Assembly (NCBI GenBank): GCA_003152315.1
Contig: PLZV01000022.1
Span: 65,671-129,670, forward strand
Direction: 5' to 3'
DNA from: Verrucomicrobiota bacterium
GTDB taxonomy: Bacteria; Verrucomicrobiota; Verrucomicrobiia; Palsa-1439
Length of the DNA stretch: 64,000 nt
Shown: in pieces, positions 9,621 to 48,883 of the stretch
Layout of the letters: each line of letters opens with the position of its first letter
Position numbering within the stretch: position 1 is the stretch's first letter
Notes under the pieces: model-generated
The model's database searches: none
What the model was told of the DNA's origin: nothing
The model's input: only the letters and a program-made list of their open reading frames with translations
Position numbers and translations under genes: made by a program

Positions 9621-9629
9621 GTTAATCCA

Positions 9630-11519: not shown

Positions 11520-11520
11520 T

Positions 11521-12447: not shown

Positions 12448-12463
12448 ATATATTCCTTTCAAA

Positions 12464-27017: not shown

Positions 27018-27898
27018 TTTCCGGTGACGATCAGTTTCTGGCCTTCTTTGGGGTCCGCCTTGAGCAAGTACGGCTCCCAAAAGGCGCGGTCGTACCGTGC
27101 CCAAGCGTGGCAACCGAATGGGAGTTGATGGTGATTGCGCTCCAGGCAAACGCGCGGCGAAACTTCGAAGGCAAAACGCAAGCCGGTTGCCACATCCGCG
27201 ATCTTGAACTCCGGATAGTAGTGCACCGCCTCGTCCGACCAGAAGATGTCGGCCTCGGTGCGGCGCCGAAGCCAGCGAAACATGTGAAACTGTGACGAGT
27301 TAAAGACGGGCAACCGCTTCAAGAATCTCTTGGGCAGGTTCAAGTATTGGATGTACTTCGGCTTCGACCCGTAGTACTCCTGCCAATATTGATCGGGATC
27401 GACGGTGGGTTTCGGGGAGTACAGTACCTTGAGGAAGCTCTGGACCTTCATCAGCGCAAAACCATTGTTGCCGACACGCTCCCTCTTAACCCAGGGCGAG
27501 TCAGGACAATGGATCCACGGCGGGCCGACGTAGTCGAGACCCGACTGGCACCATTGCTCGAGCTGATCGGACAAGACCAGGCTGTCGAGGTGATACATGA
27601 GGATGTACTTGTAATCAGCGAATGTCTCATAGAACAAGGGCGCTGTCACCAGCCGCGCATGCGCTGCGGCGCTGCCAAAGAATTTCCTCGCAAACGACTT
27701 TACTTGAAAGCCGGGGTGATCGAAAGTTACCGCACTCGGCGAGACCAGATACTTGTCGTAGCACGACAAGTAATGGATGGCGTGCCGTAGAGAGATTTGC
27801 TCATCGGGCGTCAGTGTCAACCGTTTCGAAAGAGGCACCACGACTGCCACGAGCTTGGTCGGCTCCTTCAGAACGGGGGTGTTAACGTGTAGGATCAT
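27014..27898 (-). CDS. Conserved hypothetical protein of polysaccharide loci (possibly DUF5672-like)
   Basis: No catalytic motifs recognised; GNNGFALMK block; translationally coupled to wzm. Confidence 0.45.
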   Translation of the reverse strand: MILHVNTPVLKEPTKLVAVVVPLSKRLTLTPDEQISLRHAIHYLSCYDKYLVSPSAVTFDHPGFQVKSFARKFFGSAAAHARLVTAPLFYETFADYKYILMYHLDSLVLSDQLEQWCQSGLDYVGPPWIHCPDSPWVKRERVGNNGFALMKVQSFLKVLYSPKPTVDPDQYWQEYYGSKPKYIQYLNLPKRFLKRLPVFNSSQFHMFRWLRRRTEADIFWSDEAVHYYPEFKIADVATGLRFAFEVSPRVCLERNHHQLPFGCHAWARYDRAFWEPYLLKADPKEGQKLIVTGK

Positions 27899-28644
27899 CG
27901 TCCGGCTCCCTGGAAATGGATCTGTTCGACTTCGCTCAATTCACTCCGCATTCTCACCACGCGTGCCGGCGACCCAACCACGACCGCGCCGTCCGGCACG
28001 TTATGCGTTACAACCGCACCCGCGCCAACCACGGCTCCTTTGCCGATGCGGACGCCCGACAGCACGATGACACCAAAGCCAAGCCACGCGTCGTCTTCGA
28101 TAATGATCGGACCCTTCGATTGCAGCGGCTGGTTGCGAATCAACGCTCCCGGCGCGATCCCGTGGTCGTACGAATAGAGTGCGCATTGGGGTGCGATCTG
28201 AACGCCGTTGCCGATCCGAATCGGCGCCACCGCCGCCGTGAAGTGGCAGCGTGGTTGAATTGCGGTGTCCGCGCCGACATGCAGGCTACCACCGGCGAAG
28301 GTTTCCACGATGATCTCCTGGAACAACATCACGCGGTCAGCCAACTCAACAGCGCCGCCACCTTCGTGTTGATAGATGATCACGCGGTCACCGATGAAGA
28401 CATTATTCCCTAATGTCAGGTTCGTGTGCGAGATCTGCGCGCTGGCGGAGACGTAGCCTTTGAGCTGAATCCGCGCCAATTCGAGGCCGCCCGTGTATGG
28501 CGGATACCCACATCCAGCGAGGCGCGTGGCAATCCGGCCGAAAAACCCACGGCCGGACCGTGCGAGCCAGAAGTTCACCCACATCCACGCAAGTCGCTTC
28601 CAGGCGCGAGCACCGAGGCCATCCGTATGCTTGGATACAGTCAT
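27895..28644 (-). CDS. Left-handed beta-helix (hexapeptide-repeat) acetyltransferase
   Basis: Repeated [LIV]G-x4 hexapeptides (IGNGVQIAPQCALYS, IIEDDAWLGFGVIVLSGVRIGKGAVVGAGAVV). Confidence 0.8.
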   Translation of the reverse strand: MTVSKHTDGLGARAWKRLAWMWVNFWLARSGRGFFGRIATRLAGCGYPPYTGGLELARIQLKGYVSASAQISHTNLTLGNNVFIGDRVIIYQHEGGGAVELADRVMLFQEIIVETFAGGSLHVGADTAIQPRCHFTAAVAPIRIGNGVQIAPQCALYSYDHGIAPGALIRNQPLQSKGPIIIEDDAWLGFGVIVLSGVRIGKGAVVGAGAVVTHNVPDGAVVVGSPARVVRMRSELSEVEQIHFQGAGR

Positions 28645-29687
28645 GGACGTGTCCGAAGGTTTCGCAGAAACATCCGTGTGGGCTTTGGGACAGCAGCGGT
28701 ATAGGCCGTGCGCGCCTTGTTGAACGCCCGCCGCAACGTGCTTTGCGTCCGTGGCATATCCATCAGCACGACTTCCTGAACGAAGAAATCATCGGCTTGT
28801 TTGTCGCGCAACATGCCTGATGGATGCTGCAAAGGGAAGGGCATTTCTGCAAGCGGAAGATTCGCCCATTTGCTTCCCGTCCAGGTGGTGTGCGTCGCAT
28901 CCTCGCCAAAGCCAATATTCGAAACCAAGTTGACGTTGGGCATGATGCAGAGGCCGTTGTGCACCCACGTTGCGAAGAGCCACTGGTAGTCCCAGTAATT
29001 GATCATACCACTCGCACGGTAGGCGTCTTCGAATTTCGTGGCCCAGTGTTGCGCCACCCGCGCATCGCCGACGAGATCCACCAACCACGACGTGTCGCGC
29101 AAGGCGGGCCATCGTTTCACGCCCATATCCATGTGCCGCCACGCACGACGCCAGGTGGCCCAGCCCCAGCAGATCTTGAATTGCGACAGGAAATAACTGG
29201 CGTCGCCGCGTTTGTGGCCGCGCTGGAAGTTGCTGCCGGCAATCTGCATGATTCGTTCATCATCACGATACAATTCGAGCAACTCGTCGCAGTAACGAAA
29301 GAAAGACGGGTGGGGCAGGCAGTCATCTTCCAGAATGATTGCGCGATCCGTTTGCTCAAATACCCAGTCGACCCCCGATGTGGGACCGCGACCGCACCCG
29401 AGGTTTATGTTCGAGTATTTTTTCACGACTTCGCACGGCCAGTCGATGCGCTCGATGACGGCGCGGGTGGCGGCGCATTTCTCGGCCTCGCCTGGTCGGT
29501 CGGGGCGGGGACCATCCGCAATAACGAACACTTTGGGAGGCTTGGCTTGGGCAACGGTCTCCGCCACCTTCGCGATCAGATCCGGTCGATTGAAGATAAT
29601 CAATGCCACTGGAGATTGCACGAAACGCCCTCCCAGTCTCTTACTGCTGCCGCTGCAGCATACATTGCCGCCATGAACGCGCCCCAA
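28641..29687 (-). CDS. GT-A fold glycosyltransferase, GNT-I (GT13)-like; paralog B
   Basis: VALIIFNRPD...KVFVIADGPR, ILEDDCLP; paralog of 23956-24915; alternative GTG start at 29621. Confidence 0.55.
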   Translation of the reverse strand: MGRVHGGNVCCSGSSKRLGGRFVQSPVALIIFNRPDLIAKVAETVAQAKPPKVFVIADGPRPDRPGEAEKCAATRAVIERIDWPCEVVKKYSNINLGCGRGPTSGVDWVFEQTDRAIILEDDCLPHPSFFRYCDELLELYRDDERIMQIAGSNFQRGHKRGDASYFLSQFKICWGWATWRRAWRHMDMGVKRWPALRDTSWLVDLVGDARVAQHWATKFEDAYRASGMINYWDYQWLFATWVHNGLCIMPNVNLVSNIGFGEDATHTTWTGSKWANLPLAEMPFPLQHPSGMLRDKQADDFFVQEVVLMDMPRTQSTLRRAFNKARTAYTAAVPKPTRMFLRNLRTRP

Positions 29688-30534
29688 GATCGATCAATTT
29701 CATTTCGACCAGCGATCCGCCGCCGAAATGTAGGAAGTAGCTGTTGGTCATGGTCGCGTTCAGGCAGGACCGCCGAACGTCGGAATATCGCAGACCGCCC
29801 AGATGGCGTGCGAGTTTTCGACCGATCCGCGCCACATAGGGCAGTTGTGGCTCTTCATTGATAAGAAACGGATAATGCAGGCAGATCTGGTCGAAGAGTG
29901 TGACATTGAAGCGCGGGTCGATCCAGCTTACGGCCTTGGCTCGAAGTAGTTCATAGGAGAGCGGGCGCATCTCGTAATTCCATTCCGCACCGCCCTTTTC
30001 CTCATGGTCGCGGTACGTTGTTTCAAACAATTCCCGATGATATCGTGGTGAGAACACGAGAACACCACATTGTACGACGTCGTCGAACTCCACAGCCAAA
30101 CCATAGTTTGCATAATATTGTTTAGCCGTGGCGTTTGGAATGGCCCTGTCACCCCAGTACTCCTGCAGGCGCTCGAGAATCTGCGCGTATTCCCCAACCG
30201 AAGGAGCGGCCCATTGATTGACCGCGCCGACCTTGTCGACAGGCACCATGGCGCAGATGCACGGGGCCGCGGCAATGTTGATCAGGATGTCAGAATCGAT
30301 CCACACGACTTGATTGTAGTTCTTCACGAATTCCTGACCGGGAATCAAGCATTTTTGCCAGGAAGGTGATCGTCGGGAAGCGCGTACGGAATTATCCAGA
30401 GGCTGATCGATGCAGATCAGGTCATACCCGTGCCGGTTGGCGTATTCGTTCCAATTCGCCTCGCACGACTCTTTCCAGGCATGGAGATAACGGTCCCCGA
30501 CGGCCATCGTCACAATTGCTTTCGAATGTTTCAT
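29641..30534 (-). CDS. Putative nucleotide-diphospho-sugar glycosyltransferase (GT-A, DxD motif; GT8-like), tandem paralog 1
   Basis: AIVTMAVGDRYL, SPSWQK, VVWIDSDILIN (DxD), FLHFGG; three tandem paralogs. Confidence 0.6.
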   Translation of the reverse strand: MKHSKAIVTMAVGDRYLHAWKESCEANWNEYANRHGYDLICIDQPLDNSVRASRRSPSWQKCLIPGQEFVKNYNQVVWIDSDILINIAAAPCICAMVPVDKVGAVNQWAAPSVGEYAQILERLQEYWGDRAIPNATAKQYYANYGLAVEFDDVVQCGVLVFSPRYHRELFETTYRDHEEKGGAEWNYEMRPLSYELLRAKAVSWIDPRFNVTLFDQICLHYPFLINEEPQLPYVARIGRKLARHLGGLRYSDVRRSCLNATMTNSYFLHFGGGSLVEMKLIDLGARSWRQCMLQRQQ

Positions 30535-30564
30535 TCGGTGCCCGTCCCTTGCCGTCTCTGGCCG

Positions 30565-31452
30565 CTAAAACTGGAAATCGCGCCATGAGTTCACGCGTTG
30601 GTTGACGAGCCTCATTTCATCGGTTGCCAGACCGCCAAAATGCAGGAAGAAACTGTTCAGGTACGTTGCTGTCAAACACGCTTCCTTGATCGTGGTCAAG
30701 GACGGCAAATTCATGATTGCGCCCAGTTTGCGCTTTACCCTGGCGACGTAACTGTGGTCCATCGTGGGTCTGATCAGAAAAGGGTAATGCAAGAATAAGA
30801 CCGCCGGCCACATCACGTTGAATCGGGGGTCGATCCATTGCACGCAACCCGCCTTGAGCATCTCATAGGACAGTGGACGCATCTCCATTTGCCATTCGCG
30901 TCCTCCCTTTTCTTCGTACTCGAAATACGTGCGCTCAAGCACAGCCCGGTGATGGCGCGGTGAAAGCACCAGCACACCGGTGTTGGCAACTTCATCGAAA
31001 CCGGAAGGCAACCCGTAGGTCATGTAGTATTCTCGGGCGGTATAGTTCACGACCGCGTGGCCTTCGCAGAAATCGTAAATCCGGTCGTGCACGGTCTGTC
31101 GGTAATGGCGCCACTCGCGCGAATACGGGTATTCCTCGACGGCCCCGATCTTTTCCGGGAGAACGCCTGCAATAATGTCGAGAGCCGCCGCGGCGTTGAT
31201 CATGATGTCCGAATCGATCCAAACGATTCGCTCGTAGTCTTGCGCAAAGTCCTGTTCCAAGATAAGGCATTTCTGCCACGCCGGCGAGCGTTTGCGGGCG
31301 CGTTCCGAATTATCGAGCGGTTTGTCGAGGCAGATGACATCGAAGCCGTGCTGCGCTGCGTAGGCGCGCCAATTCGCTTCGCAAGTGCTCCTCCAGTGGT
31401 GGAGGTACCGGTCGCCAACGGCTAACGTAACAATTGCCTTGGTATGGTTCAC
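30565..31452 (-). CDS. Putative nucleotide-diphospho-sugar glycosyltransferase (GT-A, DxD), tandem paralog 2
   Basis: AIVTLAVGDRYL, SPAWQK, IVWIDSDIMIN, FFLHFGG; start set at GTG forming GTGA overlap with upstream stop, giving 296 aa like paralogs. Confidence 0.55.
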   Translation of the reverse strand: MNHTKAIVTLAVGDRYLHHWRSTCEANWRAYAAQHGFDVICLDKPLDNSERARKRSPAWQKCLILEQDFAQDYERIVWIDSDIMINAAAALDIIAGVLPEKIGAVEEYPYSREWRHYRQTVHDRIYDFCEGHAVVNYTAREYYMTYGLPSGFDEVANTGVLVLSPRHHRAVLERTYFEYEEKGGREWQMEMRPLSYEMLKAGCVQWIDPRFNVMWPAVLFLHYPFLIRPTMDHSYVARVKRKLGAIMNLPSLTTIKEACLTATYLNSFFLHFGGLATDEMRLVNQRVNSWRDFQF

Positions 31453-32342
31453 AAGTGACCGGCCACCAACGTACACTGTTTCCATGAGGTGATGGACGGG
31501 TCCAACAGCCGCATATCTTCCTTCGTATCGCCGCCGAAGTGGAAAAAATAGCCGTTCAAGAATGTCGTGTTGATACACGCGCGCTTTACCTCTTCGAAGG
31601 AATCGCCCCCCATCCACTGCACCAACTTGCGCCGGATCCTTGCGGGATAGCCTGATACCAGCGGCTGTTGCAACAGGAACGGATAAAACAGGAATCGCAG
31701 TTCCCACCAATTCATATTGAACCGATGATCCAGCCAATGATCGCAACCCGCCTTCAGCAGTTCGTAGGAAAACGGTCGCATCTCCGCCAACCAGGCCGGT
31801 CCGCGATCTTCATAAGCGTGGTAATTGTGCTCCAGCAATTTCTGATGATGTCGCGGCGAGAGTACCATCACACCGTTGCCCGCCACGCGGTCGAACGCGC
31901 GATCGAACCCATAATTCTCGTAGTACTGCGGTGGATCATAATTCACCACCGCGCCGTCACCCCAAAACTCGTACATGCGGCGTAAACACTCGCGGTAAAG
32001 ATGTGGCACCGGTTGCTCCCAGTAATCGGGTACGCCGATCTTTTCCAGCGGCACACCCTCGGCAATGTCCGGTGCCGCCGCCACGTTGATCACGATGTCG
32101 CTGTCCATCCACACCACCCGCTCATACTGCGCCGCGAAATCCTGGCTCAAGATCAAACACTTCTGCCATGACGGTGACCGCTTCCGCGCACGTTCCGATG
32201 TGTCAAGCGCGCCCTCGAGGCAAATCACATCGTAGCCATGCTTGTCCGCGTATTGTTTCCAATTCGTTTCACAGCAATCCCTCCACAGCTTTGTGTAATA
32301 GTCGCCGACAACGAGCGTCGCGATGGCTTTTGTGGGCTTCAT
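31449..32342 (-). CDS. Putative nucleotide-diphospho-sugar glycosyltransferase (GT-A, DxD), tandem paralog 3
   Basis: AIATLVVGDYYT, SPSWQK, VVWMDSDIVIN, YFFHFGG; start at MKPTK (ATGA overlap with SDR gene). Confidence 0.55.
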   Translation of the reverse strand: MKPTKAIATLVVGDYYTKLWRDCCETNWKQYADKHGYDVICLEGALDTSERARKRSPSWQKCLILSQDFAAQYERVVWMDSDIVINVAAAPDIAEGVPLEKIGVPDYWEQPVPHLYRECLRRMYEFWGDGAVVNYDPPQYYENYGFDRAFDRVAGNGVMVLSPRHHQKLLEHNYHAYEDRGPAWLAEMRPFSYELLKAGCDHWLDHRFNMNWWELRFLFYPFLLQQPLVSGYPARIRRKLVQWMGGDSFEEVKRACINTTFLNGYFFHFGGDTKEDMRLLDPSITSWKQCTLVAGHL

Positions 32343-33046
32343 GGTTTTTGCATGGGTCGAATGTCGATCTCGGTGACTTCGGCCGTGCGCGGCAGGCACA
32401 GTGTGTGGGCCACCACCGACGCGATGTCCTCCGGCTGGAGCAACCGCTCGGGTCGATACTCTTTGCCTTCCAACCGATAAATCGCTGCCTGCATCGGCGT
32501 GGCCGTCCGTCCGGGGAAGACGCTCAAGACACGGATGCCAGCGGGGTTCACTTCGTCTCGCAGGTTGTCCGCGAACGCCTTCAGCGCCGTCTTCGTCGCG
32601 GTGTACTGACAAACGCCCGCGGGCAATCTGCGGGCAACGCTGGAGTTGATAAAGACGATCTGGCCGTGGCGGACTCGCAGTGCGGGCAGGAGTTCCTGCG
32701 TAAGCAAGGAGGGCGCACGCGTGTTTATGCGATGCTGTAAATCAAAATCAGCCAGTGTGGCTGGATCGACCCGATCTTGAACGAATACGCCCGCGCTATG
32801 AATGAGAATGTCCACGCCTTCGAAATCTTTCCGCAGCCTGGCGGCGACTTCACGAATCTGCGGTTCATCACCCAAATCAATGGGGAACGTCGTCACGCGC
32901 GGAGCCGCGAGTTGCAGCGCTTTGGCGTTACGACCGAGGAGGCAGAGAGTCGCACCTTGGGTGCCGAGCGCCAGGGCGATGGCCTTGCCGATGCCGCTGC
33001 TGGCGCCGGTGATCACCGCAACTTGATTCGTGAACGCGCCGTGCAT
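32339..33046 (-). CDS. SDR-family short-chain dehydrogenase/reductase
   Basis: VAVITGASSGIGKA (TGxxxGxG), NSS, YTATKTALK (YxxxK). Confidence 0.85.
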   Translation of the reverse strand: MHGAFTNQVAVITGASSGIGKAIALALGTQGATLCLLGRNAKALQLAAPRVTTFPIDLGDEPQIREVAARLRKDFEGVDILIHSAGVFVQDRVDPATLADFDLQHRINTRAPSLLTQELLPALRVRHGQIVFINSSVARRLPAGVCQYTATKTALKAFADNLRDEVNPAGIRVLSVFPGRTATPMQAAIYRLEGKEYRPERLLQPEDIASVVAHTLCLPRTAEVTEIDIRPMQKP

Positions 33047-34332
33047 TACACGGTCTCCTTCAACAGGGTATGTTGAACAAGCGTATCCGCAGCTTTGCGG
33101 ATGAGCCCAAACTCGAGACCTGAACGCTCTGCGATTTGAAGGAGCGTATGCTTGCCATCGGAGAGGTTTAACACCCAGAGCATCGCCAACTCAAACTGGC
33201 GCGCATCCGCCTGCCCGCCGATGGTTTGATACAGGCCACGCTTGCCGAGTTGCGGTTCACATTTTGGGTTGAGGTTTACGTACGCTTGGTTGCCCTCAAG
33301 CACCGCCAACGCCGCGAGGCATTTTGTGAAGGAGTCAGCCAGGCTGGCTGGCTTTACGAAATCGAGATTGTCCGCGGACGTGTGATACTCGGGGTAGCAA
33401 CCGTTCGGCGTGCGCATGAAACAACCGACCGGCAGGTTGAAACCGGGCGAGCAGTATTGGCGCTCGTCGAAACCATACGGCGTGAATTCGAGGATTTCAT
33501 GGTCCTGGCCGGAATGCTTCAACACGTGGGCCACGGCTCGATCAATCTCGGCGTCACCGCGCCGGCTCTTCTTATAAGTCAACCGGCCCGCGTCACCGAC
33601 GCAGGTGATCACCAACCCATGCTGGATGTTCGCGACGTTCGCCTCGTTGCGTGCGAGCCAGGTGATCGAGCCGATGGTGCCGGGGATAAACAAGAAACGA
33701 TAGGAATAGCGCGATTTGGATTCACCCAGGCGTTGCGCCAGAAATGTCGCGAGCGCAATGCCCGAAAGATTGTCGTTGGCCAACGATGGGTGGCAGGCGT
33801 GACAGGAGATAAGAACCTCGTCAGAACTCTGTCCGCGCAGGAGAAATTCGCCGTACGTGAGATGGCCATCTTGCAGCGTTGAGTCGATGCAGACTTCATA
33901 GACGTCGTCGGGGAGCGCGAGGAGCTGGCGGTGGCTCAAGCAGAACCCCCAGCGCTCTGCGTAGTAGGACGTGCGATACGGGATCCAATCCGGGTGCTCG
34001 GGAAGTGAGAACAGATGCGATCTCAATTCGGCGAGTGATAACTTCGTCCGGATCGGCGTGCTGTAGTTGAGGACGTGGAGGTTTGACTCCTGGAAGTCAA
34101 CGATGCGTTCGCCCCGGGTATTCTTGATGTAGGCGTCGCGAATATTCCATTCCTTGGGCACGATCCAGTCAAATACCGGCGTACCGGTCGGCACCTCAAC
34201 GACTTCGAGCGGGATATACCGGTGAATCGCTTGCAGCGTTTCCCGAAAGCCATTGCCTGTGATGCTGCGGCAAATCGGGTACAATTCGGCAATCAGCCGG
34301 TGCATCTCGTGGCCGATGTTGTCGGTCATCAT
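33046..34332 (-). CDS. Aminopeptidase-like (M28/DUF4910, COG4310) domain protein of polysaccharide loci
   Basis: HACHPSLANDNLSGIA block typical of M28-like metal-binding region; family commonly found in LPS clusters; function unknown. Confidence 0.55.
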   Translation of the reverse strand: MMTDNIGHEMHRLIAELYPICRSITGNGFRETLQAIHRYIPLEVVEVPTGTPVFDWIVPKEWNIRDAYIKNTRGERIVDFQESNLHVLNYSTPIRTKLSLAELRSHLFSLPEHPDWIPYRTSYYAERWGFCLSHRQLLALPDDVYEVCIDSTLQDGHLTYGEFLLRGQSSDEVLISCHACHPSLANDNLSGIALATFLAQRLGESKSRYSYRFLFIPGTIGSITWLARNEANVANIQHGLVITCVGDAGRLTYKKSRRGDAEIDRAVAHVLKHSGQDHEILEFTPYGFDERQYCSPGFNLPVGCFMRTPNGCYPEYHTSADNLDFVKPASLADSFTKCLAALAVLEGNQAYVNLNPKCEPQLGKRGLYQTIGGQADARQFELAMLWVLNLSDGKHTLLQIAERSGLEFGLIRKAADTLVQHTLLKETV

Positions 34333-34859
34333 GGTTTGAAATCGGGGTAGTTGCGGTCGCGGTCGGCAATCACCTTCACGTCACCGGGCCACTGGATGCC
34401 GAAAGCCGGGTCATTCCAGCGGACGCCCGCGCCGTGCTGGGGTGCGTAGTACACGGACATTTGGTAGGCGACCTCGGTGTTCGCTGTCAGTGTCAAGTAT
34501 CCATGCGCACAGCCCGGCGGAATCACGAGCATCTCCCGGTTTTCCGCGGTGAGAGGCGCGCCGACCCACTGCCGGAACGTGGGGGAGTCGCGTCGCAGGT
34601 CCACGGCCACATCGAAGATGGCGCCCATCGTGCAGCGCACGACCTTGGTCTCCTCATGCGGCGGAAGTTGATGGTGCATGCCGCGCAGCGTGCCCGGGTG
34701 CGGGTTGAAGGAGAGATTACATTGCACGAGGCGTGAATCGATTCCGTGCTTCGCGAACTCCGTCTGGCACCACAGGCGGCCGAAGAAGCCGCGTTCGTCG
34801 GCTATCCGCTCGAGTTCCAGTAGGCACACGCCTTGAATTCTGGTTTTTTTGAAGATCAT
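34329..34859 (-). CDS. NDP-4-keto-6-deoxyhexose 3,5-epimerase (RmlC-like cupin)
   Basis: GMHHQ..., KVVRCTMGAIFDVAVDLRRDSPTF, PPGCAHGY, WNDPAFGIQWP; start at internal Met MIFKKT. Confidence 0.8.
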   Translation of the reverse strand: MIFKKTRIQGVCLLELERIADERGFFGRLWCQTEFAKHGIDSRLVQCNLSFNPHPGTLRGMHHQLPPHEETKVVRCTMGAIFDVAVDLRRDSPTFRQWVGAPLTAENREMLVIPPGCAHGYLTLTANTEVAYQMSVYYAPQHGAGVRWNDPAFGIQWPGDVKVIADRDRNYPDFKP

Positions 34860-34890
34860 TGTGATAACAGTCGCGTTGCCGCCGGGCTCG

Positions 34891-35553
34891 TCAAAGTAAC
34901 AGCATTTTCTGGCAGTAGAAAGCCTCAGCGTATTTACCGGGCGCATTCGATTCAATGCCGCGGAGCCGCAGCAGGGCCAGGAACGTGTCCTCGCTGAACC
35001 ACTGTTTGGACTTTTGGGTCTTGAACTGCTCGCAAATGTGGCGGACCTTGCGTTTCGCCATCTCTTTGCTGAGATGGACGTAGGCATTGGGGGCGCCCAT
35101 GTCGCCGTCGTATTTCGGAATTTCGTACTCGAGAATCAGGTGGTTACGAAAAGCATTCCACGTTAACTCGGCCAACAGACGATGATCCTGATGCAGATCT
35201 TTGCGGTGGTGGGTGAAGATCAGGTCCGGCGCGACCTCGTGACTCAACTGTTGGACGAACTTCTTGATCCGCTCGCCCATGAACGGGAAGTAACTGTCCC
35301 GAAAACGCTTGACCACGATCCTCTTTGCAACAGCGCTCCGAAGGAAAACCTGTGCGCTGCCTTTGGCCTCGCGGGCGCGCAAGGGCGTAGCGCTGAAGAC
35401 GACCCAATGGATGGTAACGTTGGGATTCTGTTCGGTGAGTTTCAAGAGCGTGCCGCCGCAGCCGATCTCAATGTCGTCGGCGTGCGCGCCCAAGCACAGC
35501 ACGGTTCGTGGAGCGCGGGGTCGACTGTCGAGGTTGAGGGTGATCATGGGCAA
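34891..35553 (-). CDS. PIG-L/LmbE-family N-acetyl-sugar deacetylase
   Basis: LCLGAHADDIEIGCGGT signature, HHRKDLHQDH metal-binding region. Confidence 0.8.
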   Translation of the reverse strand: MPMITLNLDSRPRAPRTVLCLGAHADDIEIGCGGTLLKLTEQNPNVTIHWVVFSATPLRAREAKGSAQVFLRSAVAKRIVVKRFRDSYFPFMGERIKKFVQQLSHEVAPDLIFTHHRKDLHQDHRLLAELTWNAFRNHLILEYEIPKYDGDMGAPNAYVHLSKEMAKRKVRHICEQFKTQKSKQWFSEDTFLALLRLRGIESNAPGKYAEAFYCQKMLLL

Positions 35554-35571
35554 ACGTGATGAACGTGACCT

Positions 35572-36369
35572 TCAGGCAACGGCAGCCGGCGGTGGCTGCT
35601 TCCAGACTTCCCACGGGGCCTCACCGCGGGCGTGCATGTCTTCGAGTTGTTGTTTGTCTTTGAACGTATCCATGCCCGCCCAGAAGCCATCGTAGGTGAA
35701 GGCGCTGAGTTGGTTGTCGTCAGTAAGCCGCTGGAGCGGGCCGGGGACGAGTTCCTCCCCATTCTTAATGTAGTCGAAAATCCCCTGACGGAAAACGTAG
35801 AACCCGCCGTTAATGCGAATATTGGAGCCTCGAATGTCGCTGATCTCGGTCACCCTGCCATGATCACTCATGGTGACGAAGTGATAGGTGAGGTTCGGTT
35901 TGACGCAGAGGAATGTGGCGATCCGACTCTCTTGCTGGGCGAAGTTGATGAGATCGGACAGGGGTACGTCGGTCAGCCCATCACTGTAGTTGGCCAGAAA
36001 CATCTCTTCGCCCTCGAGGTGGTGTCGGACGAGCTTGAGTCGCTGGCCAACGGTGCAATACATGCCGGTGTCGACGAACGTGATCCGCCAGTCCTTCATG
36101 TCGTGGTTGAGCAACTGGATGTCGTGACCGCCGTTGGTCATGACGAAGTCGTTCAGAATGCACTCGTTATAGGTGAGGAAATACTGTTTGATCACATCGG
36201 CCTTATAGCCAAGACAGAGAATGAAGTCCTTGTGTCCGAAATGAGCGTAGTACTTCATGACATGCCACAAGATCGGCATGTAGCCAATTCTTACGAGCGG
36301 CTTGGGGAGGCTTTCCTCGGTTTCCTTCAAGCGCATCCCGAGACCGCCGCAGAACAAGACGACCTTCAT
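35572..36369 (-). CDS. Sugar-1-phosphate cytidylyltransferase, RfbF-like divergent paralog
   Basis: MKVVLFCGGLGMRL...LPKPLVRIGYMPILWHVMKYY, collinear with RfbF but diverged. Confidence 0.7.
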   Translation of the reverse strand: MKVVLFCGGLGMRLKETEESLPKPLVRIGYMPILWHVMKYYAHFGHKDFILCLGYKADVIKQYFLTYNECILNDFVMTNGGHDIQLLNHDMKDWRITFVDTGMYCTVGQRLKLVRHHLEGEEMFLANYSDGLTDVPLSDLINFAQQESRIATFLCVKPNLTYHFVTMSDHGRVTEISDIRGSNIRINGGFYVFRQGIFDYIKNGEELVPGPLQRLTDDNQLSAFTYDGFWAGMDTFKDKQQLEDMHARGEAPWEVWKQPPPAAVA

Positions 36370-36402
36370 GGTTTCATTCCTTTCACATTGTGCGTGTGTT
36401 CA

Positions 36403-37680
36403 TCACGGGTTGCCGGAAGTGCCCCGTGACGGATAGATCCTGACCTCGGGTATCGGCACCACAAATTCTCCACCCCATTCGCGGATAAACGCCATCTGTT
36501 GCATGATTTCATCTTTGATGTTCCAAGGCAAGATGATGACGTAATCGGGCTTTGTCTCCCGAATCTTGTCCGGATGATGGATCGGGATGTGCGTGCCCGG
36601 CAGAAACAACTTCTGCTTGTGCGGGCTGCGGTCAACAGTGTAGTCGATGAAGTCCGTGCGCACGCCGCAATAATTCAGCAGCGTGTTGCCCTTCGCCGGA
36701 GCGCCGTAACCGACAATCGTCTTGCCGCTGCGCTTCGCGGCAATCAGGAATTCCAATAGCTTGCGCTTGGTCTCTTTGACGCGCTCCGTAAAGGAAAGGT
36801 AGGTATTCAGCTGATCGTAACCGGCCCGCAACTCACGCTGGCGCAAGTCCTCGACGCGAGGTGTGCGGGGCCGTGACTCATCGCTAGTAAGCCGCGCGTA
36901 GATTCGCAGCGAGCCGCCGTGCGTGGGAAGTTCTTCGACATCGAACACCGTGAGTCCATGGGTGCCGAAGATCTTCTCGACCACGAGCAGGGACAGGTAT
37001 TGGTAGTGCTCATGGTACATCGTGTCGAATTGATTGTCCGCGATCAACCGTAACAGGTGCGGAAACTCCATCGTCAGGACACCCTTCGGCTTGAGCAACA
37101 GGCGCAGGCCTTCAACGAAGTCATTGATGTCCGGCACGTGCGCAAGCACATTGTTGCCGATCAGCAGATCGGCTTGACGGCCGCCTCGCGCCAGGTCCCG
37201 CGCGGTTTCTTCACCGAGAAATTTTACGACGGTCGGGATACCCTTCTGCGTCGCGGCGGCGGCGGTGTTGGCTGTAGGCTCGATACCCAAGACGGGAATT
37301 CCTTTCGCAACGAAGTACTGGAGCAGGTAGCCATCATTGCAAGCGACTTCGATAACGTGGTGTTGCGGACCGAGTTGGAGCCGCCCGGTGATCATCTCGA
37401 CATACGCTTTCGCGTGCGCCAACCAGCTATCGGAGAACGAGGAGAAATACGCGTAGCTGTCACTGAAGATATGCCGGGCGCTGATACAATCGGCAACCTG
37501 CACCAGAAGACAGCGGTCGCAGACCTTCACGTGGAGCGGGTAGAATGGCTCCATCTCGCTGAGCTGCGACACATTCCGATAATCATTCGCAATTGGTGAA
37601 GCGCCGAGGTCGAGGAAGGTATGCTCCAGGTCCGCGCCGCAGAATCGACACTGGCCGGGTTTGGTCATGCGGGTCTCCAA
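36403..37680 (-). CDS. NDP-hexose C-methyltransferase-family protein (TylCIII/EryBIII-type; Zn-ribbon + SAM MTase + C-terminal C-MT domain)
   Basis: N-terminal CRFCG...C..C zinc ribbon, VIEVACNDGYLL motif I, C-terminal GYGAPAKGNTLLNYCG nucleotide-sugar binding-like domain. Confidence 0.75.
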   Translation of the reverse strand: METRMTKPGQCRFCGADLEHTFLDLGASPIANDYRNVSQLSEMEPFYPLHVKVCDRCLLVQVADCISARHIFSDSYAYFSSFSDSWLAHAKAYVEMITGRLQLGPQHHVIEVACNDGYLLQYFVAKGIPVLGIEPTANTAAAATQKGIPTVVKFLGEETARDLARGGRQADLLIGNNVLAHVPDINDFVEGLRLLLKPKGVLTMEFPHLLRLIADNQFDTMYHEHYQYLSLLVVEKIFGTHGLTVFDVEELPTHGGSLRIYARLTSDESRPRTPRVEDLRQRELRAGYDQLNTYLSFTERVKETKRKLLEFLIAAKRSGKTIVGYGAPAKGNTLLNYCGVRTDFIDYTVDRSPHKQKLFLPGTHIPIHHPDKIRETKPDYVIILPWNIKDEIMQQMAFIREWGGEFVVPIPEVRIYPSRGTSGNP

Positions 37681-38693
37681 TGAAGGTTTTTATCAATCTG
37701 TGCCGTGCGCAGCAGATGCTCGAGTTGTTTCAGTCGCGTAAACGCGCGAAACTCAAATATCTCTCGTGTCATCTGGATCTTCTCAAACACTCCGTGGAGT
37801 TCCTGCGCGCCCGTGCGCGCGTCGCGCTGGCAGCGGAAACCGGGGAGCCGCGAGTTGATCTTGTCGAAATTAACCCGGTAGCTTCGATTGTCGGCGGCAT
37901 TCGCGCCGAAGCTGAGTCGGCAACCAGGGAACACGTCGGCTACGATCTCCGCGATCTCACGAACACGGTAGTTCTGGCCGTTGTCGCCGACATTGAACAC
38001 TTGATTGTGCACGATCTCGCGAGGCGCATTGAGGGCGCAAGCCACGGCGTCGCAAATATCCAGCACATGCACCAGCGGTCGCCATGGCGTGCCATCGCTG
38101 ATCATCTTGATTTCCTTCGTCGTCCACGCGAGGCCCGCCAGATTGTTCAGCACGATGTCGAACCGCATCCGCGGCGACGCGCCGAAGGCGGTCGCGTTGC
38201 GCAGGAACGTCGGCGAGAAGTTGTTGTCCGCAAGCGCCGAAACGTCACGTTCGACGAACACCTTACATTCAGCATAGGCGGTTTGCGGATTTGTGGGGGA
38301 TGTTTCCGTGACATTCTCGCTGGAGGCAACACCGTAGACACTGCATGAGGACGTATACACGAAGCGTGCGATCCCAACCTCCTTGCATTTTGTGGCCAAC
38401 GCGACACTGCCGCGATGATTGATCTGGAAGGTGAGTTCGGGATTGTGTTGCCCGAGCGGGTCGTTGGATAGTTCTGCGAGGTGGACCACCGCGTCGTAAC
38501 CGCGCAGGTCCTTGTGCGTGATATCGCGAATGTCCTGCTTGATTTGCCGCGCCGGGGGTAACACGCCGTTGTAGAGCAAACCATCACGGTAGAAGCCGGC
38601 ATCCAGTCCGGTGACGTGATGGCCGCGTTTCGCAAGCACATCGGCGAGCAATACGCCGATGTATCCGTCAGTTCCTGTGACTAGTAACTTCAT
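37665..38693 (-). CDS. NAD-dependent epimerase/dehydratase-family protein (likely NDP-sugar epimerase/4-ketoreductase)
   Basis: LLVTGTDGYIG Rossmann, SSCSVYG (Ser, no TDE dehydratase triad), YAECK YxxxK. Confidence 0.8.
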   Translation of the reverse strand: MKLLVTGTDGYIGVLLADVLAKRGHHVTGLDAGFYRDGLLYNGVLPPARQIKQDIRDITHKDLRGYDAVVHLAELSNDPLGQHNPELTFQINHRGSVALATKCKEVGIARFVYTSSCSVYGVASSENVTETSPTNPQTAYAECKVFVERDVSALADNNFSPTFLRNATAFGASPRMRFDIVLNNLAGLAWTTKEIKMISDGTPWRPLVHVLDICDAVACALNAPREIVHNQVFNVGDNGQNYRVREIAEIVADVFPGCRLSFGANAADNRSYRVNFDKINSRLPGFRCQRDARTGAQELHGVFEKIQMTREIFEFRAFTRLKQLEHLLRTAQIDKNLHWRPA

Positions 38694-38723
38694 GTTTCCT
38701 CGTTGCCGGAGTTCTATCCATTA

Positions 38724-39497
38724 TCATTTCCAGATCTTCCAGGGGACGTGGCCTGAGTTCCACAACTCCTCGAGGAGGTTCTTCTCCTTCAGCGTGTCCA
38801 TGCACGACCAGAAGCCAGTGTGCCGGTAGCCCATGAGTTGGCCGGCGTGCGCGAGACGCTCGACCGGTCCGCGCTCCCAGGAACAATCATCGCCGTCGAT
38901 GTAGTCGAGACATTTGCGATGCAAGACGAAATAGCCGCCGTTGATCCAGCCCTCCCGGGCCCCGGATTTCTCATAAAATTCGCGGACCTGGTTACCGTCG
39001 AAACCGATGCGGCCAAAGCGGGCTGGGGAGTGAACGGTGGTAACCGTCGCCAGTTTGCCATGCGCCTGATGGAATTTGATCAGCGACGTGATATCGATGT
39101 CGGCCACACCGTCGCCGTAGGTGAACATGAATGTCTCATCGTCGTCGATCCAATGGGCCAGCCGCTTGAGCCGCCCGCCGGTATTAGGATTGAGGCCGGT
39201 GTCTACAAGGTGGATCTTCCACTTCGGCTGGTTGCCCTTGTGGATACTCACCTTGCCGGTTGCGAGGTCAATGGTCACATCGTTGTTGAACGTATGGAAG
39301 TTCAGAAAGTAATCCTTGATGACCTCGCCGCGGTACCCGAGGGCAATGATGAACTCAGTGACATTATGGGCTGCGAAGATGTTCATGATGTGCCAGAGAA
39401 TCGGGCGTCCGCCGATCTCGACCATCGGCTTGGGTCGCAGGACGGTTTCCTCTGAGAGGCGGGAGCCGAATCCACCAGCGAGGATGATTGCTTTCAT
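38724..39497 (-). CDS. rfbF: Glucose-1-phosphate cytidylyltransferase
   Basis: MKAIILAGGFGSRLSEET..PKPMVEIGG.PILWHIM, near-collinear with Salmonella RfbF including C-terminal GHVPWKIW. Confidence 0.88.
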   Translation of the reverse strand: MKAIILAGGFGSRLSEETVLRPKPMVEIGGRPILWHIMNIFAAHNVTEFIIALGYRGEVIKDYFLNFHTFNNDVTIDLATGKVSIHKGNQPKWKIHLVDTGLNPNTGGRLKRLAHWIDDDETFMFTYGDGVADIDITSLIKFHQAHGKLATVTTVHSPARFGRIGFDGNQVREFYEKSGAREGWINGGYFVLHRKCLDYIDGDDCSWERGPVERLAHAGQLMGYRHTGFWSCMDTLKEKNLLEELWNSGHVPWKIWK

Positions 39498-41923: not shown

Positions 41924-42955
41924 CTAGCCTCGACTGGGCCTTTCTGCAAACGCACGCAGATGGTTACGGACGGAGGAAGGAAGAATCCGTCTCGCGATGC
42001 CACGGGAAGCTGTTTTCGCACGCTGGGCTCTTTTCGAGAATCGGAACAAATGTGGATGGCGGTAGGGCCACAGTTCTTCCTGCAGGGTCTTCCACACTTC
42101 CGTGCCAACCAATCCTGTGCTCCTGAGGTAACTTTCAAGCCAGACCAGATACTCACCACGCGCGGGGCTCGGGCCGTCGTAACTGAGTAAGCCTGTGCGG
42201 AGCGCCACCGCGCAGCTGCCATCGGGATGTTGGCGATACCAAGCCCAACATCCTTCCGCCACAAACACCGGGTAGCGGAGGAGAATCTTCTGGTTCAGCA
42301 CCAGGTCGTCGTACTGATCGCGGAAGGCATCCTCAAATCCGCCCACGGTCTCGACCGCGTCACGACGCAAGAGCATGCTGCACGGGCTTGGCAAGAAGGC
42401 TTCGCTGCGGATGAATTGGTTAGCCAGGGTAGGGGGACTGACCAAAGTATTTGGAGGCACACCAGTTTCTGCCAGGTAATCCCTGGATTGGTCTTCCGGT
42501 TTTCCCGACCAGCTAAACCACACGAGCGTCCGAGTGTACAACATGGCCGCTTCAGGATGCGCCTCCAGGGCCGGTACCTGATTGGCCAATTTACCCGGCA
42601 GCCAGACGTCATCAGCGTCCAGCAAGGCCACATATTCTCCACGCGCATGCCGCAAGCCAAGATTGCGCGCTGCGCTCTTACCGCGGTTCTCGTGACCGGG
42701 ATGCTCCAGGTAATGTATGCGATCCGGGGATTTTGCGGCGTAGTCGCGGGCGAACTGTGAACTACGGTCGGTCGAGCCGTCGTCCACCAGCCACAGTTCC
42801 CAGGTCGGGTAGGTCTGGGCCAGGACGCTTTCAACGGCTTCGGCAAGGAATTTCTCCGCGTTCAGAAAGATGATAATTGTCGAAACCAGCGCCTTGGTGA
42901 CGGGGCGATTGTGTTTTTCCGTGGCCATGGCCTGTTCTGGTGAATGATCGGACAT
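41924..42955 (-). CDS. GT2 family glycosyltransferase
   Basis: VSTIIIFLNAEKFL, LVDDGSTD, LDADD; start at internal Met (MSDHSP) abutting upstream gene. Confidence 0.75.
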   Translation of the reverse strand: MSDHSPEQAMATEKHNRPVTKALVSTIIIFLNAEKFLAEAVESVLAQTYPTWELWLVDDGSTDRSSQFARDYAAKSPDRIHYLEHPGHENRGKSAARNLGLRHARGEYVALLDADDVWLPGKLANQVPALEAHPEAAMLYTRTLVWFSWSGKPEDQSRDYLAETGVPPNTLVSPPTLANQFIRSEAFLPSPCSMLLRRDAVETVGGFEDAFRDQYDDLVLNQKILLRYPVFVAEGCWAWYRQHPDGSCAVALRTGLLSYDGPSPARGEYLVWLESYLRSTGLVGTEVWKTLQEELWPYRHPHLFRFSKRAQRAKTASRGIARRILPSSVRNHLRAFAERPSRG

Positions 42956-43641
42956 CAGCCTCGATGGTGGGGACGGAATTTCAGGTCGCCCACATACGTC
43001 ACTTTGAGGTTGTCGGGGGAACCGGGAACGAGGCGGACCTTGTGCCCCGCTCGTTTGACGACGGCCGCGGTGCCTTCTTCGTTCCAATTGTTGCGTGCCG
43101 CGAGGCGGTTCGCGTGAAGGAGGATTTCCCGTCGGTATGCGTGCGGAATCTGCAGTGCGACAACCGAACGGCGAGGCAGAATCATTTTCAGCCCCTGCTT
43201 TTCCAAAAGACCCAGGCTGTCCCGCACGGGGACTTCCGTGTACAAGGCCACCGCACCGTGGCGTTGCACCTCTGCCAGCAGCCTCTCGAATAACTCGGCG
43301 GTGACAAACGGTCTTGCGACTTCGTGGAGTAGTATAATCGGCTTCGTACAGCACCGCAGGAGGCGGGACAAGGTTTCCTGCCGGGTCGCACCGCCGGCGA
43401 CCACCTGTACGGTTTTCGGCACGAGCCGACGGGCTCGCGCCAGATCCTCGGGTCGTACCCCAACGATGATCTCGGTGGCGAAGGGCGTTACAAGCGCCAC
43501 GGCACGTTCGAGCAGCGTCCGGCCTTCAAGACGAAGAAACGCCTTGGGGCGTCGACCGATACGATCACCCGAGCCGGCGGCCAGGATCAGGACGCTGACG
43601 CAGTCGGGTTTCACTTGCGAAGCGCGATTTACAGTGACCAT
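42955..43641 (-). CDS. IspD/TarI-family sugar-alcohol-phosphate cytidylyltransferase
   Basis: VSVLILAAGSGDRIG..PKAFL motif of IspD/TarI nucleotidyltransferases; adjacent to TagF-like gene. Confidence 0.75.
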   Translation of the reverse strand: MVTVNRASQVKPDCVSVLILAAGSGDRIGRRPKAFLRLEGRTLLERAVALVTPFATEIIVGVRPEDLARARRLVPKTVQVVAGGATRQETLSRLLRCCTKPIILLHEVARPFVTAELFERLLAEVQRHGAVALYTEVPVRDSLGLLEKQGLKMILPRRSVVALQIPHAYRREILLHANRLAARNNWNEEGTAAVVKRAGHKVRLVPGSPDNLKVTYVGDLKFRPHHRG

Positions 43642-44720
43642 AGCCGGGTTATTCCTTGTACGGCACGACGAGCCGCCCACTTGACCTTCCTCGCAGCGAG
43701 GCGCGCCGCAGGTACGCTGGCGAGATAAGACAGGTGATTCGAAGGTATGGTGGCCGCCAGCTTCTCCACGTTATGGCAAAGTCGCTCCACCGCCTTGCCA
43801 TCCGTCAGGTCGCCGAAAAGAAGTTTCCGATAATGCGCGCGGCGGTCAGATCCCCGCACGGGATCGGACAGGGCGGCGGCTACCGTTGCTGGCAATTCTT
43901 CCACGTTTTCAATTTGTCTTCCCATATCTCGCCAACTCCATTCGAAGCCGCGCGGATCGAAATACTCACAGCCGAACCGATCAGGATTGTTGATCAGGAT
44001 CATCGGCCGATCGAGGGCCAGGTAATAGAGTTGGACGCTGGAAGCGTCCGTGATGAGGGCGTCCGCGGCGCGGAGGTAGGGCATCACATCGTCGTTTGCG
44101 TTCGCAACCAGGTGAACGTCTTCGTGCTCGTGCGCGAGACGGCGCCAGGTCTCCATCCATTCCGGGCTCTGTTCGGCGATCAACGGATGCGGCTTGATGA
44201 TGATGGAGATGTCCTGTCGGGAACCGCGAATCAATTCGACCAGACGAGCGCCCAGCATACCCGCTGAAGAAAGAGGACGGTTGAATGTTGGTGCGTAGAG
44301 TACGGTCTTCTGTCCGGGTTTCCGGTCGAACGGCAAAGCCGGGCTGTCGCCGCGAAAGAGAGGATCCAGACCCACGTAGCCAATGACCCAGAAATCCTGG
44401 CGCGGCTTGGAGCCGCCCTGTTGGTACCAGTCCCGCATGAAATCACTTGTCACGCACAGGTAGTCGCATTCGTTGGCGCCCTGGTACGCCACCATCTTGC
44501 TGGCCAGTCCATGTCGCGTGTGAACGAAGATGGTCTTCGGCAGACGCGGTCGCAATTCCCCGAAGATGGCCTCGGCCATGATCGTCACGTGTGGCTGAAA
44601 ATCGAAAAGTGCCTCACGGTTCTCGGTATACAAACACCAATGCCTGCGGCTCAACATTTCGTGGATCGGTCGCAGGATAGCGTCGTGAAACTTATTGCAG
44701 GGAAGAAATGCAACGCGCAT
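43629..44720 (-). CDS. CDP-alditol:polymer phosphotransferase, TagB/TagF (Glyphos_transf) family
   Basis: KTVLYAPTFN, IIIKPHP, LITDASSVQLYYLALDRPMI: TagF-family signature blocks. Confidence 0.72.
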   Translation of the reverse strand: MRVAFLPCNKFHDAILRPIHEMLSRRHWCLYTENREALFDFQPHVTIMAEAIFGELRPRLPKTIFVHTRHGLASKMVAYQGANECDYLCVTSDFMRDWYQQGGSKPRQDFWVIGYVGLDPLFRGDSPALPFDRKPGQKTVLYAPTFNRPLSSAGMLGARLVELIRGSRQDISIIIKPHPLIAEQSPEWMETWRRLAHEHEDVHLVANANDDVMPYLRAADALITDASSVQLYYLALDRPMILINNPDRFGCEYFDPRGFEWSWRDMGRQIENVEELPATVAAALSDPVRGSDRRAHYRKLLFGDLTDGKAVERLCHNVEKLAATIPSNHLSYLASVPAARLAARKVKWAARRAVQGITRLWSL

Positions 44721-44839
44721 ATCACTCTCGTCCAAACCGGGTGAGTGTACTGGCTCGCCTTGAAAATACTGCCGGCCGAAACTGCTCGGCCGAGGGCAGG
44801 CGCGACACTGGCAATCCCGCGAAGACGGTCCGGATGGGC

Positions 44840-47687: not shown

Positions 47688-47692
47688 GGGGG

Positions 47693-48418: not shown

Positions 48419-48883
48419 TTTTAGCAAACCTCTACCAGAAAAACTCGTCGATCTTCCAGCGCGGACTCGGCTGGTCGACGGTCGTGGAACGATTTGTTCG
48501 TCTGGCCACCAATCTATCAAATGCCTCATCCGCCACTCGCACCTCAAGCGGCGTTCGCCCCGCTTGATTGTAGCGCAATTATGCTCGTTTTCAAAACTAC
48601 GTCAACCGCAAACCAGCCCGCGTGGGGGCAACTTCGGCGTATCACATTCTATTCAGAAGACTTATCATCAGCGCGCCGCGTGCCAAAAGCCAGTCTTTCC
48701 CTCTTCCGAATGGGTCCTGCGGTGGCCAGAGCCGTAAGTGGGTTCAGGGACGCGGGTTACTGCGAAAAAACGTTTCCAGAGCGGGCTAACGCATGGTCTA
48801 CGAAATAGTTACGTCTGCCTGTTATTGTCCAAAGTTCTGGCCGAGGCGTTCAGTTTGACGACCCACCTTCTCAGCGCAAGCGA

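Follow-up and report, generated by a model that had tools for sequence, protein, structure and literature searches.

A CDP-sugar operon of a Verrucomicrobiota bacterium in which a Cj1427-like C4-dehydrogenase may stand in for CDP-glucose 4,6-dehydratase

We analyzed a stretch of 64,000 nucleotides (nt), here called the window, from a Verrucomicrobiota bacterium (GenBank assembly GCA_003152315.1, contig PLZV01000022.1, positions 65,671 to 129,670), in which a group of cytidine diphosphate (CDP)-sugar genes lacks a recognizable gene for CDP-glucose 4,6-dehydratase (rfbG). The genes at 32339-39497, on the minus strand, form an eight-gene operon, probably for the biosynthesis of a CDP-activated, C-methyl-branched hexose. 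Read along that strand, they encode the glucose-1-phosphate cytidylyltransferase RfbF, an extended short-chain dehydrogenase/reductase (SDR), a nucleoside diphosphate (NDP)-hexose C-methyltransferase, an RfbF-like nucleotidyltransferase that we call RfbF2, a PIG-L/LmbE-family de-N-acetylase, an RmlC-like epimerase, a metallopeptidase-like DUF4910 protein, and a classical SDR of 235 amino acids (aa). We think it likely that the missing dehydratase is replaced by the extended SDR, which would act as a C4-dehydrogenase in the manner of Campylobacter jejuni Cj1427, and that the pathway would end in a CDP-3-C-methyl-hexose with the 6-hydroxyl group retained. To our knowledge, the characterized pathways of CDP-hexose modification all begin with the 4,6-dehydratase and yield 6-deoxy or 3,6-dideoxy sugars, and GDP (guanosine diphosphate)-heptoses of Campylobacter are to date the only sugars for which oxidation of the Cj1427 type, without deoxygenation, has been demonstrated. 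A route to CDP-hexoses that runs through a C4-dehydrogenase and retains the 6-hydroxyl would, as far as we can judge, be one not yet described.

A first-pass annotation of the sequence had described six of these genes and had ended the module at 34329. All six are real: each is a minus-strand open reading frame (ORF) and strongly matches a Pfam or NCBIfam family. The module extends farther, to 32339, with the addition of the DUF4910 gene and the gene of the 235-aa SDR. These two genes were both found alongside the module in other genomes as well. The packing is tight: the stop of the extended SDR gene and the start of the methyltransferase gene share 4 nt, the RmlC-like gene and the DUF4910 gene overlap by 4 nt, the DUF4910 gene and the 235-aa SDR gene by 1 nt, and the latter and the gene that follows it by 4 nt, which supports a single operon. 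The gap between rfbF and the extended SDR gene is 30 nt.

Consistent with the first-pass annotation, which had recognized no CDP-glucose 4,6-dehydratase, tblastn with a genuine RfbG from the related locus L011 (itself matching TIGR02622 with 489 bits) detected none in the window. The extended SDR (342 aa, 37665-38693, minus strand; PF01370, E = 4e-43) did not match TIGR02622, the model of CDP-glucose 4,6-dehydratases, and its best NCBIfam match was galE with 99 bits, far under the cutoff of 262. The annotation had also read in this protein an SSCSVYG motif and no dehydratase triad, and both readings stand: residues S116-C117-S118 occupy the place of T-D-E in RmlB and of S-D-K in RfbG, and the true RfbG proteins of related loci carry TSDKCY. 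The segment S115-G121 was invariant in 25 homologs (69-91% identity), and the S-C-S motif persisted in relatives of only 47-51% identity. The catalytic-type residues S116, Y140 and K144 are present, without the acid/base pair of the dehydratases. Because it has no TIGR02622 match and an invariant S-C-S replaces T-D-E or S-D-K, the extended SDR, judged from its sequence, is not a dehydratase.

The best match of the extended SDR in the Protein Data Bank (PDB) was Cj1427 (6VO6 and 6VO8), with 82.8 bits in a single-sequence search. In a family-profile search, Cj1427 scored 118.2 bits over residues 2-310, and the next structure, a Pyrococcus GalE, scored 88.7 bits. The segment FGxSPRMRxD is common to the extended SDR and Cj1427 and is unmatched in P. 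horikoshii GalE (8RDG), the sole other alignment shown. By these comparisons, the C. jejuni C4-dehydrogenase is the closest solved relative of the extended SDR. Cj1427 oxidizes C4 of GDP-manno-heptose with no deoxygenation, its tightly held NADH is recycled by conversion of alpha-ketoglutarate to L-2-hydroxyglutarate, and its product goes to a cupin C3/C5-epimerase and then to a C4-reductase (PMC10680097).

A scan of species-representative genomes yielded at least 570 relatives of the extended SDR; the best 80, of 65-70% identity and mostly cyanobacterial, were combined with two metagenomic relatives into 82 non-redundant SDR-anchored loci, in which neighbors were counted within 10 kb. An RfbF gene was near the extended SDR gene in 74 of the 82 loci, an RmlC-like gene in 73, a gene for a ∼410-aa flavin adenine dinucleotide (FAD) protein (LhgO) in 68, a gene for an oxidoreductase with NAD_binding_3, DRL_cat and SAF domains in 61, a C-methyltransferase gene in 20, and rfbG in a single one, L011. 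The FAD protein, whose gene sits between rfbF and the SDR gene, matched the L-2-hydroxyglutarate oxidase model NF008726 with 628 bits (cutoff 299). A dehydrogenase of the Cj1427 type would need an enzyme that converts L-2-hydroxyglutarate to alpha-ketoglutarate, so a neighboring LhgO fits the dehydrogenase route; its place beside the SDR points to an oxidation that would keep the 6-hydroxyl. A second LhgO gene, in divergent orientation, adjoins a methyltransferase-SDR-RfbF2-PIG-L row on the soil contig L118, in which the SDR has just 51% identity.

A second survey, of metagenomes, was anchored on RfbF2 and gave 80 loci, of which the 47 with a length of at least 8 kb were used for the counts. 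An SDR of the SSCS type without rfbG was found in 16 of them, and a TSDKCY-type rfbG without the SDR in 8; no locus had the two together (one-sided Fisher test, p = 0.025 with the 8-kb minimum and p = 0.010 with a minimum of 10 kb). Among the 19 loci with a C-methyltransferase gene, 12 had the SDR and none had rfbG. The SDR-type loci (n = 16) contained an RmlC gene in 15 cases, a DUF4910 gene in 13 and a C-methyltransferase gene in 12, and the rfbG-type loci (n = 8) contained a DRL-like oxidoreductase gene in all 8, an RmlC gene in 7 and a DUF4910 gene in none. Since the SDR and rfbG never occurred together in these loci, they would be alternative routes to the keto-sugar, and the C-methyltransferase appears to travel with the SDR route in this sample. 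With rfbG in 1 of the 82 SDR-anchored loci and in 0 of the 19 methyltransferase loci anchored on RfbF2, its absence is conserved among modules of this type, which argues against the earlier suggestion that the 4,6-dehydratase is simply missing here or is encoded outside the locus. The module without rfbG was seen again in a Verrucomicrobiae metagenome-assembled genome (MAG) and in metagenomes of peat and soil; the extended SDR is present with identical sequence on peat-metagenome scaffolds, and the Verrucomicrobiae MAG has a copy of 75-76% identity with syntenic flanks.

The analysis shows what the genes are, which motifs they carry, how the operon is built and how often its genes occur together; from this we infer the following chemical steps. 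RfbF, RfbF2 or both would make a CDP-hexose from cytidine triphosphate and a hexose-1-phosphate. The extended SDR, with tightly held NAD+, would oxidize C4 to give a CDP-4-keto-hexose with the 6-hydroxyl retained, the reaction of Cj1427, and would in this way stand in for CDP-glucose 4,6-dehydratase. The bound NADH would be re-oxidized either by alpha-ketoglutarate, with formation of L-2-hydroxyglutarate, or by the same enzyme as it reduces a modified keto-sugar. A TcaB9-type methyltransferase would then methylate the enolizable carbon beside the 4-keto group, most likely C3, and the RmlC-like enzyme would epimerize C5, the methylated C3 being blocked. The reduction of C4 could fall to the 235-aa SDR, to the extended SDR or to the methyltransferase, and the DUF4910 protein would take part in an additional step, the end product being the CDP-3-C-methyl-hexose with a 6-hydroxyl. 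Methyltransferases of the TylC3/TcaB9 type and RmlC need a 4-keto substrate, and the extended SDR is the operon's only candidate supplier of a 4-keto sugar. The first-pass annotation had proposed a C-methyl-branched or otherwise unusual 6-deoxyhexose; a branched sugar is a reasonable reading, whereas the 6-deoxy part does not agree with an SDR that resembles Cj1427 and has relatives so often linked to LhgO.

Several observations weigh against this pathway. The identity between the extended SDR and Cj1427 is only about 26-30%, and Foldseek on the AlphaFold2 model of the SDR does not separate Cj1427 from GalE, TunA and ArnA. The extended SDRs all scored alike (template modeling score about 0.65, TunA first), and sequence profiles were used in place of Foldseek because of this lack of discrimination. 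The model has a mean predicted local distance difference test value of 77, with low confidence in the substrate loops 118-134 and 168-176. No LhgO gene was found in the 64-kb window, and because its linkage to the SDR was seen mostly in cyanobacteria, few independent events may lie behind it. L011, from a Binatia MAG, holds the extended SDR together with a genuine rfbG, the only such locus in either set (RfbF-methyltransferase-SDR-RfbG-RmlC-DUF4910), and its SDR could act as a reductase. Two relatives of 91% identity, L003 and L088, lack the 235-aa SDR, and the methyltransferase sequence allows methylation at C5 as well as at C3.

L011 also speaks for the main alternative, a conventional 6-deoxy pathway, in which an rfbG elsewhere in the genome would provide CDP-4-keto-6-deoxyglucose and the extended SDR would be the final C4-ketoreductase or an epimerase. 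Its RfbG is genuine by its TIGR02622 score, and no other obvious reductase was seen in the close relatives L003 and L088, which also favors that pathway. We nevertheless consider it unlikely, given that rfbG lay within 10 kb of the SDR in that one locus alone, that the two genes never met in the 47 RfbF2 loci, where rfbG occurred in no methyltransferase locus, and that an LhgO gene beside the SDR would have no role with a simple reductase. Moreover, in characterized CDP-deoxyhexose clusters, such as those of Salmonella and Yersinia, rfbG sits inside the sugar-synthesis gene cluster. The same holds for C. jejuni HS:41, whose CDP pathway starts with an rfbG-type dehydratase encoded within the cluster (PMC12369002).

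A more doubtful alternative is that the extended SDR carries out another transient oxidation on a CDP-hexose, a GalE-like 4-epimerization, a TyvE-like 2-epimerization or a TunA-like 5,6-dehydration, and that the keto intermediate of the methyltransferase is made in another way. It draws on galE as the top NCBIfam match, which stays well below its cutoff, on TunA and GalE as the leading Foldseek matches, and on the invariant Cys117, whose aligned counterpart in TunA is the Cys of that enzyme's T-C-E motif. The Glu base present in TunA and RmlB is missing from the SDR, however, and a TyvE/RfbE-type 2-epimerase was rejected, as no such structure was among the best 60 PDB matches listed. Epimerases release no keto-sugar, yet the RmlC-like and C-methyltransferase neighbors, which require such a sugar, are conserved, and the linkage to LhgO would be left unexplained. 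Far less probable still is a supply of GDP-4-keto-6-deoxymannose to the methyltransferase and epimerase by gmd (4706-5728), as in the proposed Coxiella virenose pathway, with the RfbF proteins serving other sugars. The gmd gene, which the first-pass annotation had put forward as a possible source of the 4-keto intermediate, is genuine (TIGR01472, 541 bits), and in one related locus, L089, gmd and fcl directly follow the DUF4910 gene. In the window, however, gmd acts on a GDP-sugar, lies 29 kb from the module and stands beside an Fcl-like partner of its own (best match NF047922), with which it would form a separate GDP-fucose-type pathway; well over 100 module loci have no gmd nearby, and the module always has its own cytidylyltransferase and oxidizing enzyme, whether SDR or rfbG. 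In view of this partner and of the statistics of module context, gmd was rejected as the supplier.

To return to the proposed C4-dehydrogenase route, its methylation step would depend on the C-methyltransferase (36403-37668, minus strand), for which gene callers favored the ATG at 37668 (421 aa), a TTG at 37680 extending the ORF. The first-pass assignment to the TylCIII/EryBIII type proved sound: in a search with hidden Markov models, the domains PF08421 (76 bits), PF13489 (49 bits) and PF08484 (231 bits) each exceeded the cutoff, and the protein aligned over its full length with MtmC (4RV9, E = 5.5e-79), KijD1 (5T64) and TcaB9 (3NDI). The CxxC...CxxC zinc site aligned as well, and a YHEH motif pairs with YHEH in MtmC and YDEH in KijD1. 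These residues have a catalytic role in TcaB9. All three solved homologs are sugar 3-C-methyltransferases, and by this analogy methylation at C3 is the most likely outcome. MtmC, the closest of them, is described as having ketoreductase activity as well.

The rfbF gene (257 aa, 38724-39497, minus strand) is canonical, as first annotated: its product scored 371 bits with TIGR02623 (cutoff 300) and retains both motifs of the sugar-phosphate pocket, EKP and P-x-R-F-G, of Salmonella typhi RfbF (PDB 1TZF). RfbF2 (265 aa, 35572-36369, minus strand) matched 1TZF with E = 2.5e-51, but with 224 bits under the TIGR02623 cutoff and the pocket motifs gone, it is a relative, and no more than a putative member, of the glucose-1-phosphate cytidylyltransferases. 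Throughout its clade, EKP and P-G-R-F-G, which line the sugar-phosphate pocket in 1TZF, are replaced, and the nucleotidyl-transfer motifs GGxGxR, PKP, YxDG and MDT are retained. Judged by these motifs, RfbF2 represents a separate, widespread clade with an altered sugar pocket. The description of a duplicated cytidylyltransferase thus holds for a diverged paralog and not for a recent duplicate. A canonical RfbF accompanied RfbF2 in only 1 of the 47 loci, RfbF2 being normally the sole RfbF-type gene of such modules, and a PIG-L gene directly followed RfbF2 in 45 of them. The PIG-L deacetylase of the operon (218 aa, 34891-35547 or 35553, minus strand) had been correctly placed in the block (PF02585, 62 bits, cutoff 28); its translation contains the metal motifs AHADD and HxDH, and its best PDB matches are GlcNAc-malate deacetylases of the BshB type. 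As PIG-L proteins are de-N-acetylases, the fixed pairing with RfbF2 suggests, speculatively, a substrate or intermediate of the N-acetyl-hexosamine type.

The RmlC-like protein (176 aa, 34329-34859, minus strand), already annotated as a 3,5-epimerase, would act as an NDP-4-keto-hexose 3,5- or 5-epimerase; it exceeded the TIGR01221 cutoff (174 bits, cutoff 156), matched PF00908 with E = 3e-63, and had RmlC enzymes as its best PDB matches (E = 5e-44). The metallopeptidase-like protein (428 aa, 33046-34332, minus strand) matched DUF4910, DUF2172 and HTH_47 and is a close homolog of CA_C2195, which it matched over residues 5-425 (PDB 3K9T, E = 1.5e-161). For the CA_C2195 family, the only published analysis known to us, one of gene neighborhoods, predicts a role in the synthesis of modified sugars, with no reaction assigned (PMC4000134). 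The classical SDR (235 aa, 32339-33046, minus strand; PF00106) scored 212.6 bits with NF006073, just below the cutoff of 218, and its orthologs (48-57% identity) occur in several modules with methyltransferase and DUF4910 genes. We regard it as a candidate C4-ketoreductase.

The closest parallel to the proposed route is the GDP-D-glycero-L-gluco-heptose pathway of C. jejuni HS:2. Both have an extended SDR without dehydratase residues, the SDR of the operon having Cj1427 as its best PDB match. Cj1427 produces a 4-keto sugar with the 6-hydroxyl retained and is followed by a cupin C3/C5-epimerase, Cj1430, and a separate C4-reductase, Cj1428 (PMC10680097). The operon would likewise make such a 4-keto sugar, and it has a cupin 3,5-epimerase and, in the 235-aa SDR that close relatives lack, a candidate for the separate reductase. 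The recycling of NADH in HS:2 through alpha-ketoglutarate and L-2-hydroxyglutarate fits the LhgO of the operon's relatives. In contrast to HS:2, the sugar here would be a CDP-hexose, not a GDP-heptose; the operon adds the C-methyltransferase, PIG-L, DUF4910 and a second nucleotidyltransferase, and the window has no LhgO.

With the TDP-L-mycarose enzymes TylC3 and EryBIII, the operon shares the three-domain methyltransferase with its zinc site and Y-x-E-H motif, and also the logic of a methyltransferase, an RmlC-like epimerase (TylK/EryBVII) and a reductase (TylC2/EryBIV) acting on a 4-keto sugar. In those antibiotic pathways, a 4,6-dehydratase generates the substrates, which are deoxythymidine diphosphate-4-keto sugars of the 2,6-dideoxy or 6-deoxy kind, whereas the operon has a CDP carrier, no dehydratase and a cell-surface polysaccharide setting. 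The classical CDP-6-deoxyhexose pathways (RfbF-RfbG of Salmonella and Yersinia, and C. jejuni HS:41) likewise have a glucose-1-phosphate cytidylyltransferase first and a 3,5-epimerase and C4-reductase later, but they start their modifications with the CDP-glucose 4,6-dehydratase that the operon lacks. The Bacillus cereus CDP-cereose operon (JBC 2017) reportedly combines a C-methyltransferase acting on a CDP-sugar with a start by CDP-glucose 4,6-dehydratase. The products in HS:41 are CDP-fucofuranose as well as CDP-6-deoxy-L-altrofuranose (PMC12369002). Neighborhoods of CA_C2195, like the operon, combine DUF4910 with an SDR of the epimerase/dehydratase type, a nucleotidyltransferase and an S-adenosylmethionine methylase; unlike the present analysis, that account does not single out the combination of SDR, C-methyltransferase, RfbF2 and PIG-L or the absence of the dehydratase (PMC4000134).

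A broader reading, which we put forward more tentatively than that of the operon itself, is that a widespread family of Cj1427-like CDP-hexose C4-dehydrogenases, with at least 570 matches in GTDB species genomes and numerous others in metagenomes from soil and peat, takes the place of the 4,6-dehydratase and gives CDP-hexoses with a 6-hydroxyl; LhgO would regenerate alpha-ketoglutarate in cyanobacteria, the sugar would be a 3-C-methyl-hexose in the present operon, and RfbF2 with PIG-L would form a CDP-amino-sugar branch. A literature search of partial coverage returned no paper on a CDP-hexose C4-dehydrogenase or on linkage of rfbF and LhgO. If true, this reading would account for hundreds of genes annotated as NAD-dependent epimerase/dehydratase that lie beside rfbF in cyanobacteria, Verrucomicrobiota, Chloroflexota, Burkholderiales and soil metagenomes, and would make LhgO, where it stands by the SDR gene, a dedicated co-substrate recycling enzyme of a sugar-nucleotide pathway. 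It would also imply that surface polysaccharides contain rare sugars, namely L-hexoses that are not deoxygenated and C-methyl hexoses, and it offers starting points for three orphan proteins, RfbF2, its PIG-L partner and DUF4910. Non-deoxy 3-C-methyl-mannose is described as a rare branched sugar (PMC12961483).

Some features of the related loci deserve mention in their own right. The cyanobacterial loci (L008-L087; for example, L010 at 7828-11032 and L025 at 7849-13225) carry a set of five genes, for RfbF, LhgO, the SSCS-type SDR, an RmlC-like protein and the ∼440-aa NAD_binding_3/DRL_cat/SAF oxidoreductase. All five lay within 10 kb in 48 of the 82 loci, and 6 more also carried a C-methyltransferase gene. 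From its gene content, the set would be expected to lead to a CDP-L-hexose with the 6-hydroxyl in place, and it appears to be uncharacterized so far. The rfbG ORF of L011 (6762-8228, 488 aa) has a C-terminal PAS-like extension (TIGR00229 match). Two RfbF2 loci (L123 at 380-4799 and L158 at 4313-8776) combine RmlC, the DRL-like oxidoreductase and rfbG with an FAD/NAD-fold protein (N-terminus MPNIVVLGSGMAGFGAA) that recalls the CDP-pyranose/furanose mutase step in C. jejuni HS:41. A ∼310-aa protein is encoded beside the DUF4910 and methyltransferase genes in 9 of the 16 SDR-type RfbF2 loci (L010 at 12918-13859 and L044 at 14725-15654, for example); it gave only a faint match, to the model "sporadic carbohydrate cluster 2OG-Fe(II) oxygenase", and is absent from the 64-kb window.

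The operon is enclosed in one very large surface-polysaccharide cluster on the minus strand (positions 937-50086, roughly 49 kb). The cluster begins with genes for a porin, Wza, Wzc, a NusG paralog, a Glyphos_transf protein and an IspD-like cytidylyltransferase, followed by a GT2 glycosyltransferase, a polysaccharide deacetylase and a GT4 glycosyltransferase. After the CDP-sugar module come four proteins of no known family, an acetyltransferase and a DUF5672 protein, then Wzm/Wzt, many glycosyltransferases, an FkbM methyltransferase and a Wzy-like protein, and finally AsnB, a carbamoyltransferase, gmd with its Fcl-like partner, and the initiating transferase. Directly after the module, 29641-32342 encodes three tandem paralogs of 297-306 aa with a DxD-like VWIDSDI motif; the fourth protein (28641-29621) has a paralog of 51% identity at 23956-24915. 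None of the four paralogous proteins encoded at 28641-32342 had a Pfam or NCBIfam match, and together with the copy at 23956-24915 they are probably novel glycosyltransferase-like proteins.

Two export systems share the co-directional cluster, Wzm and Wzt with a Wzt_C domain (24879-27149) and Wza/Wzc (45564-48547) with a Wzy-like protein (14804-16156). Their presence together suggests either two glycans or assembly by a hybrid route. At 42955-44735, the gene of the IspD-like cytidylyltransferase (TIGR00453, 142 bits, below cutoff) overlaps that of a CDP-glycerol-type glycerophosphotransferase (PF04464), a pair that suggests an alditol phosphate as the third CDP-activated precursor of this cluster. 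At the downstream (3') end, 937-2868 encodes a 643-aa protein with a Glycos_transf_4 domain (WecA/MraY type) and a C-terminal CoA_binding_3 domain. The NusG paralog (44840-45412), which is RfaH/UpxY-like, lies just downstream of wza/wzc and upstream of roughly 44 kb of biosynthetic genes, and it has the same placement in the relatives L001, L003 and L005.

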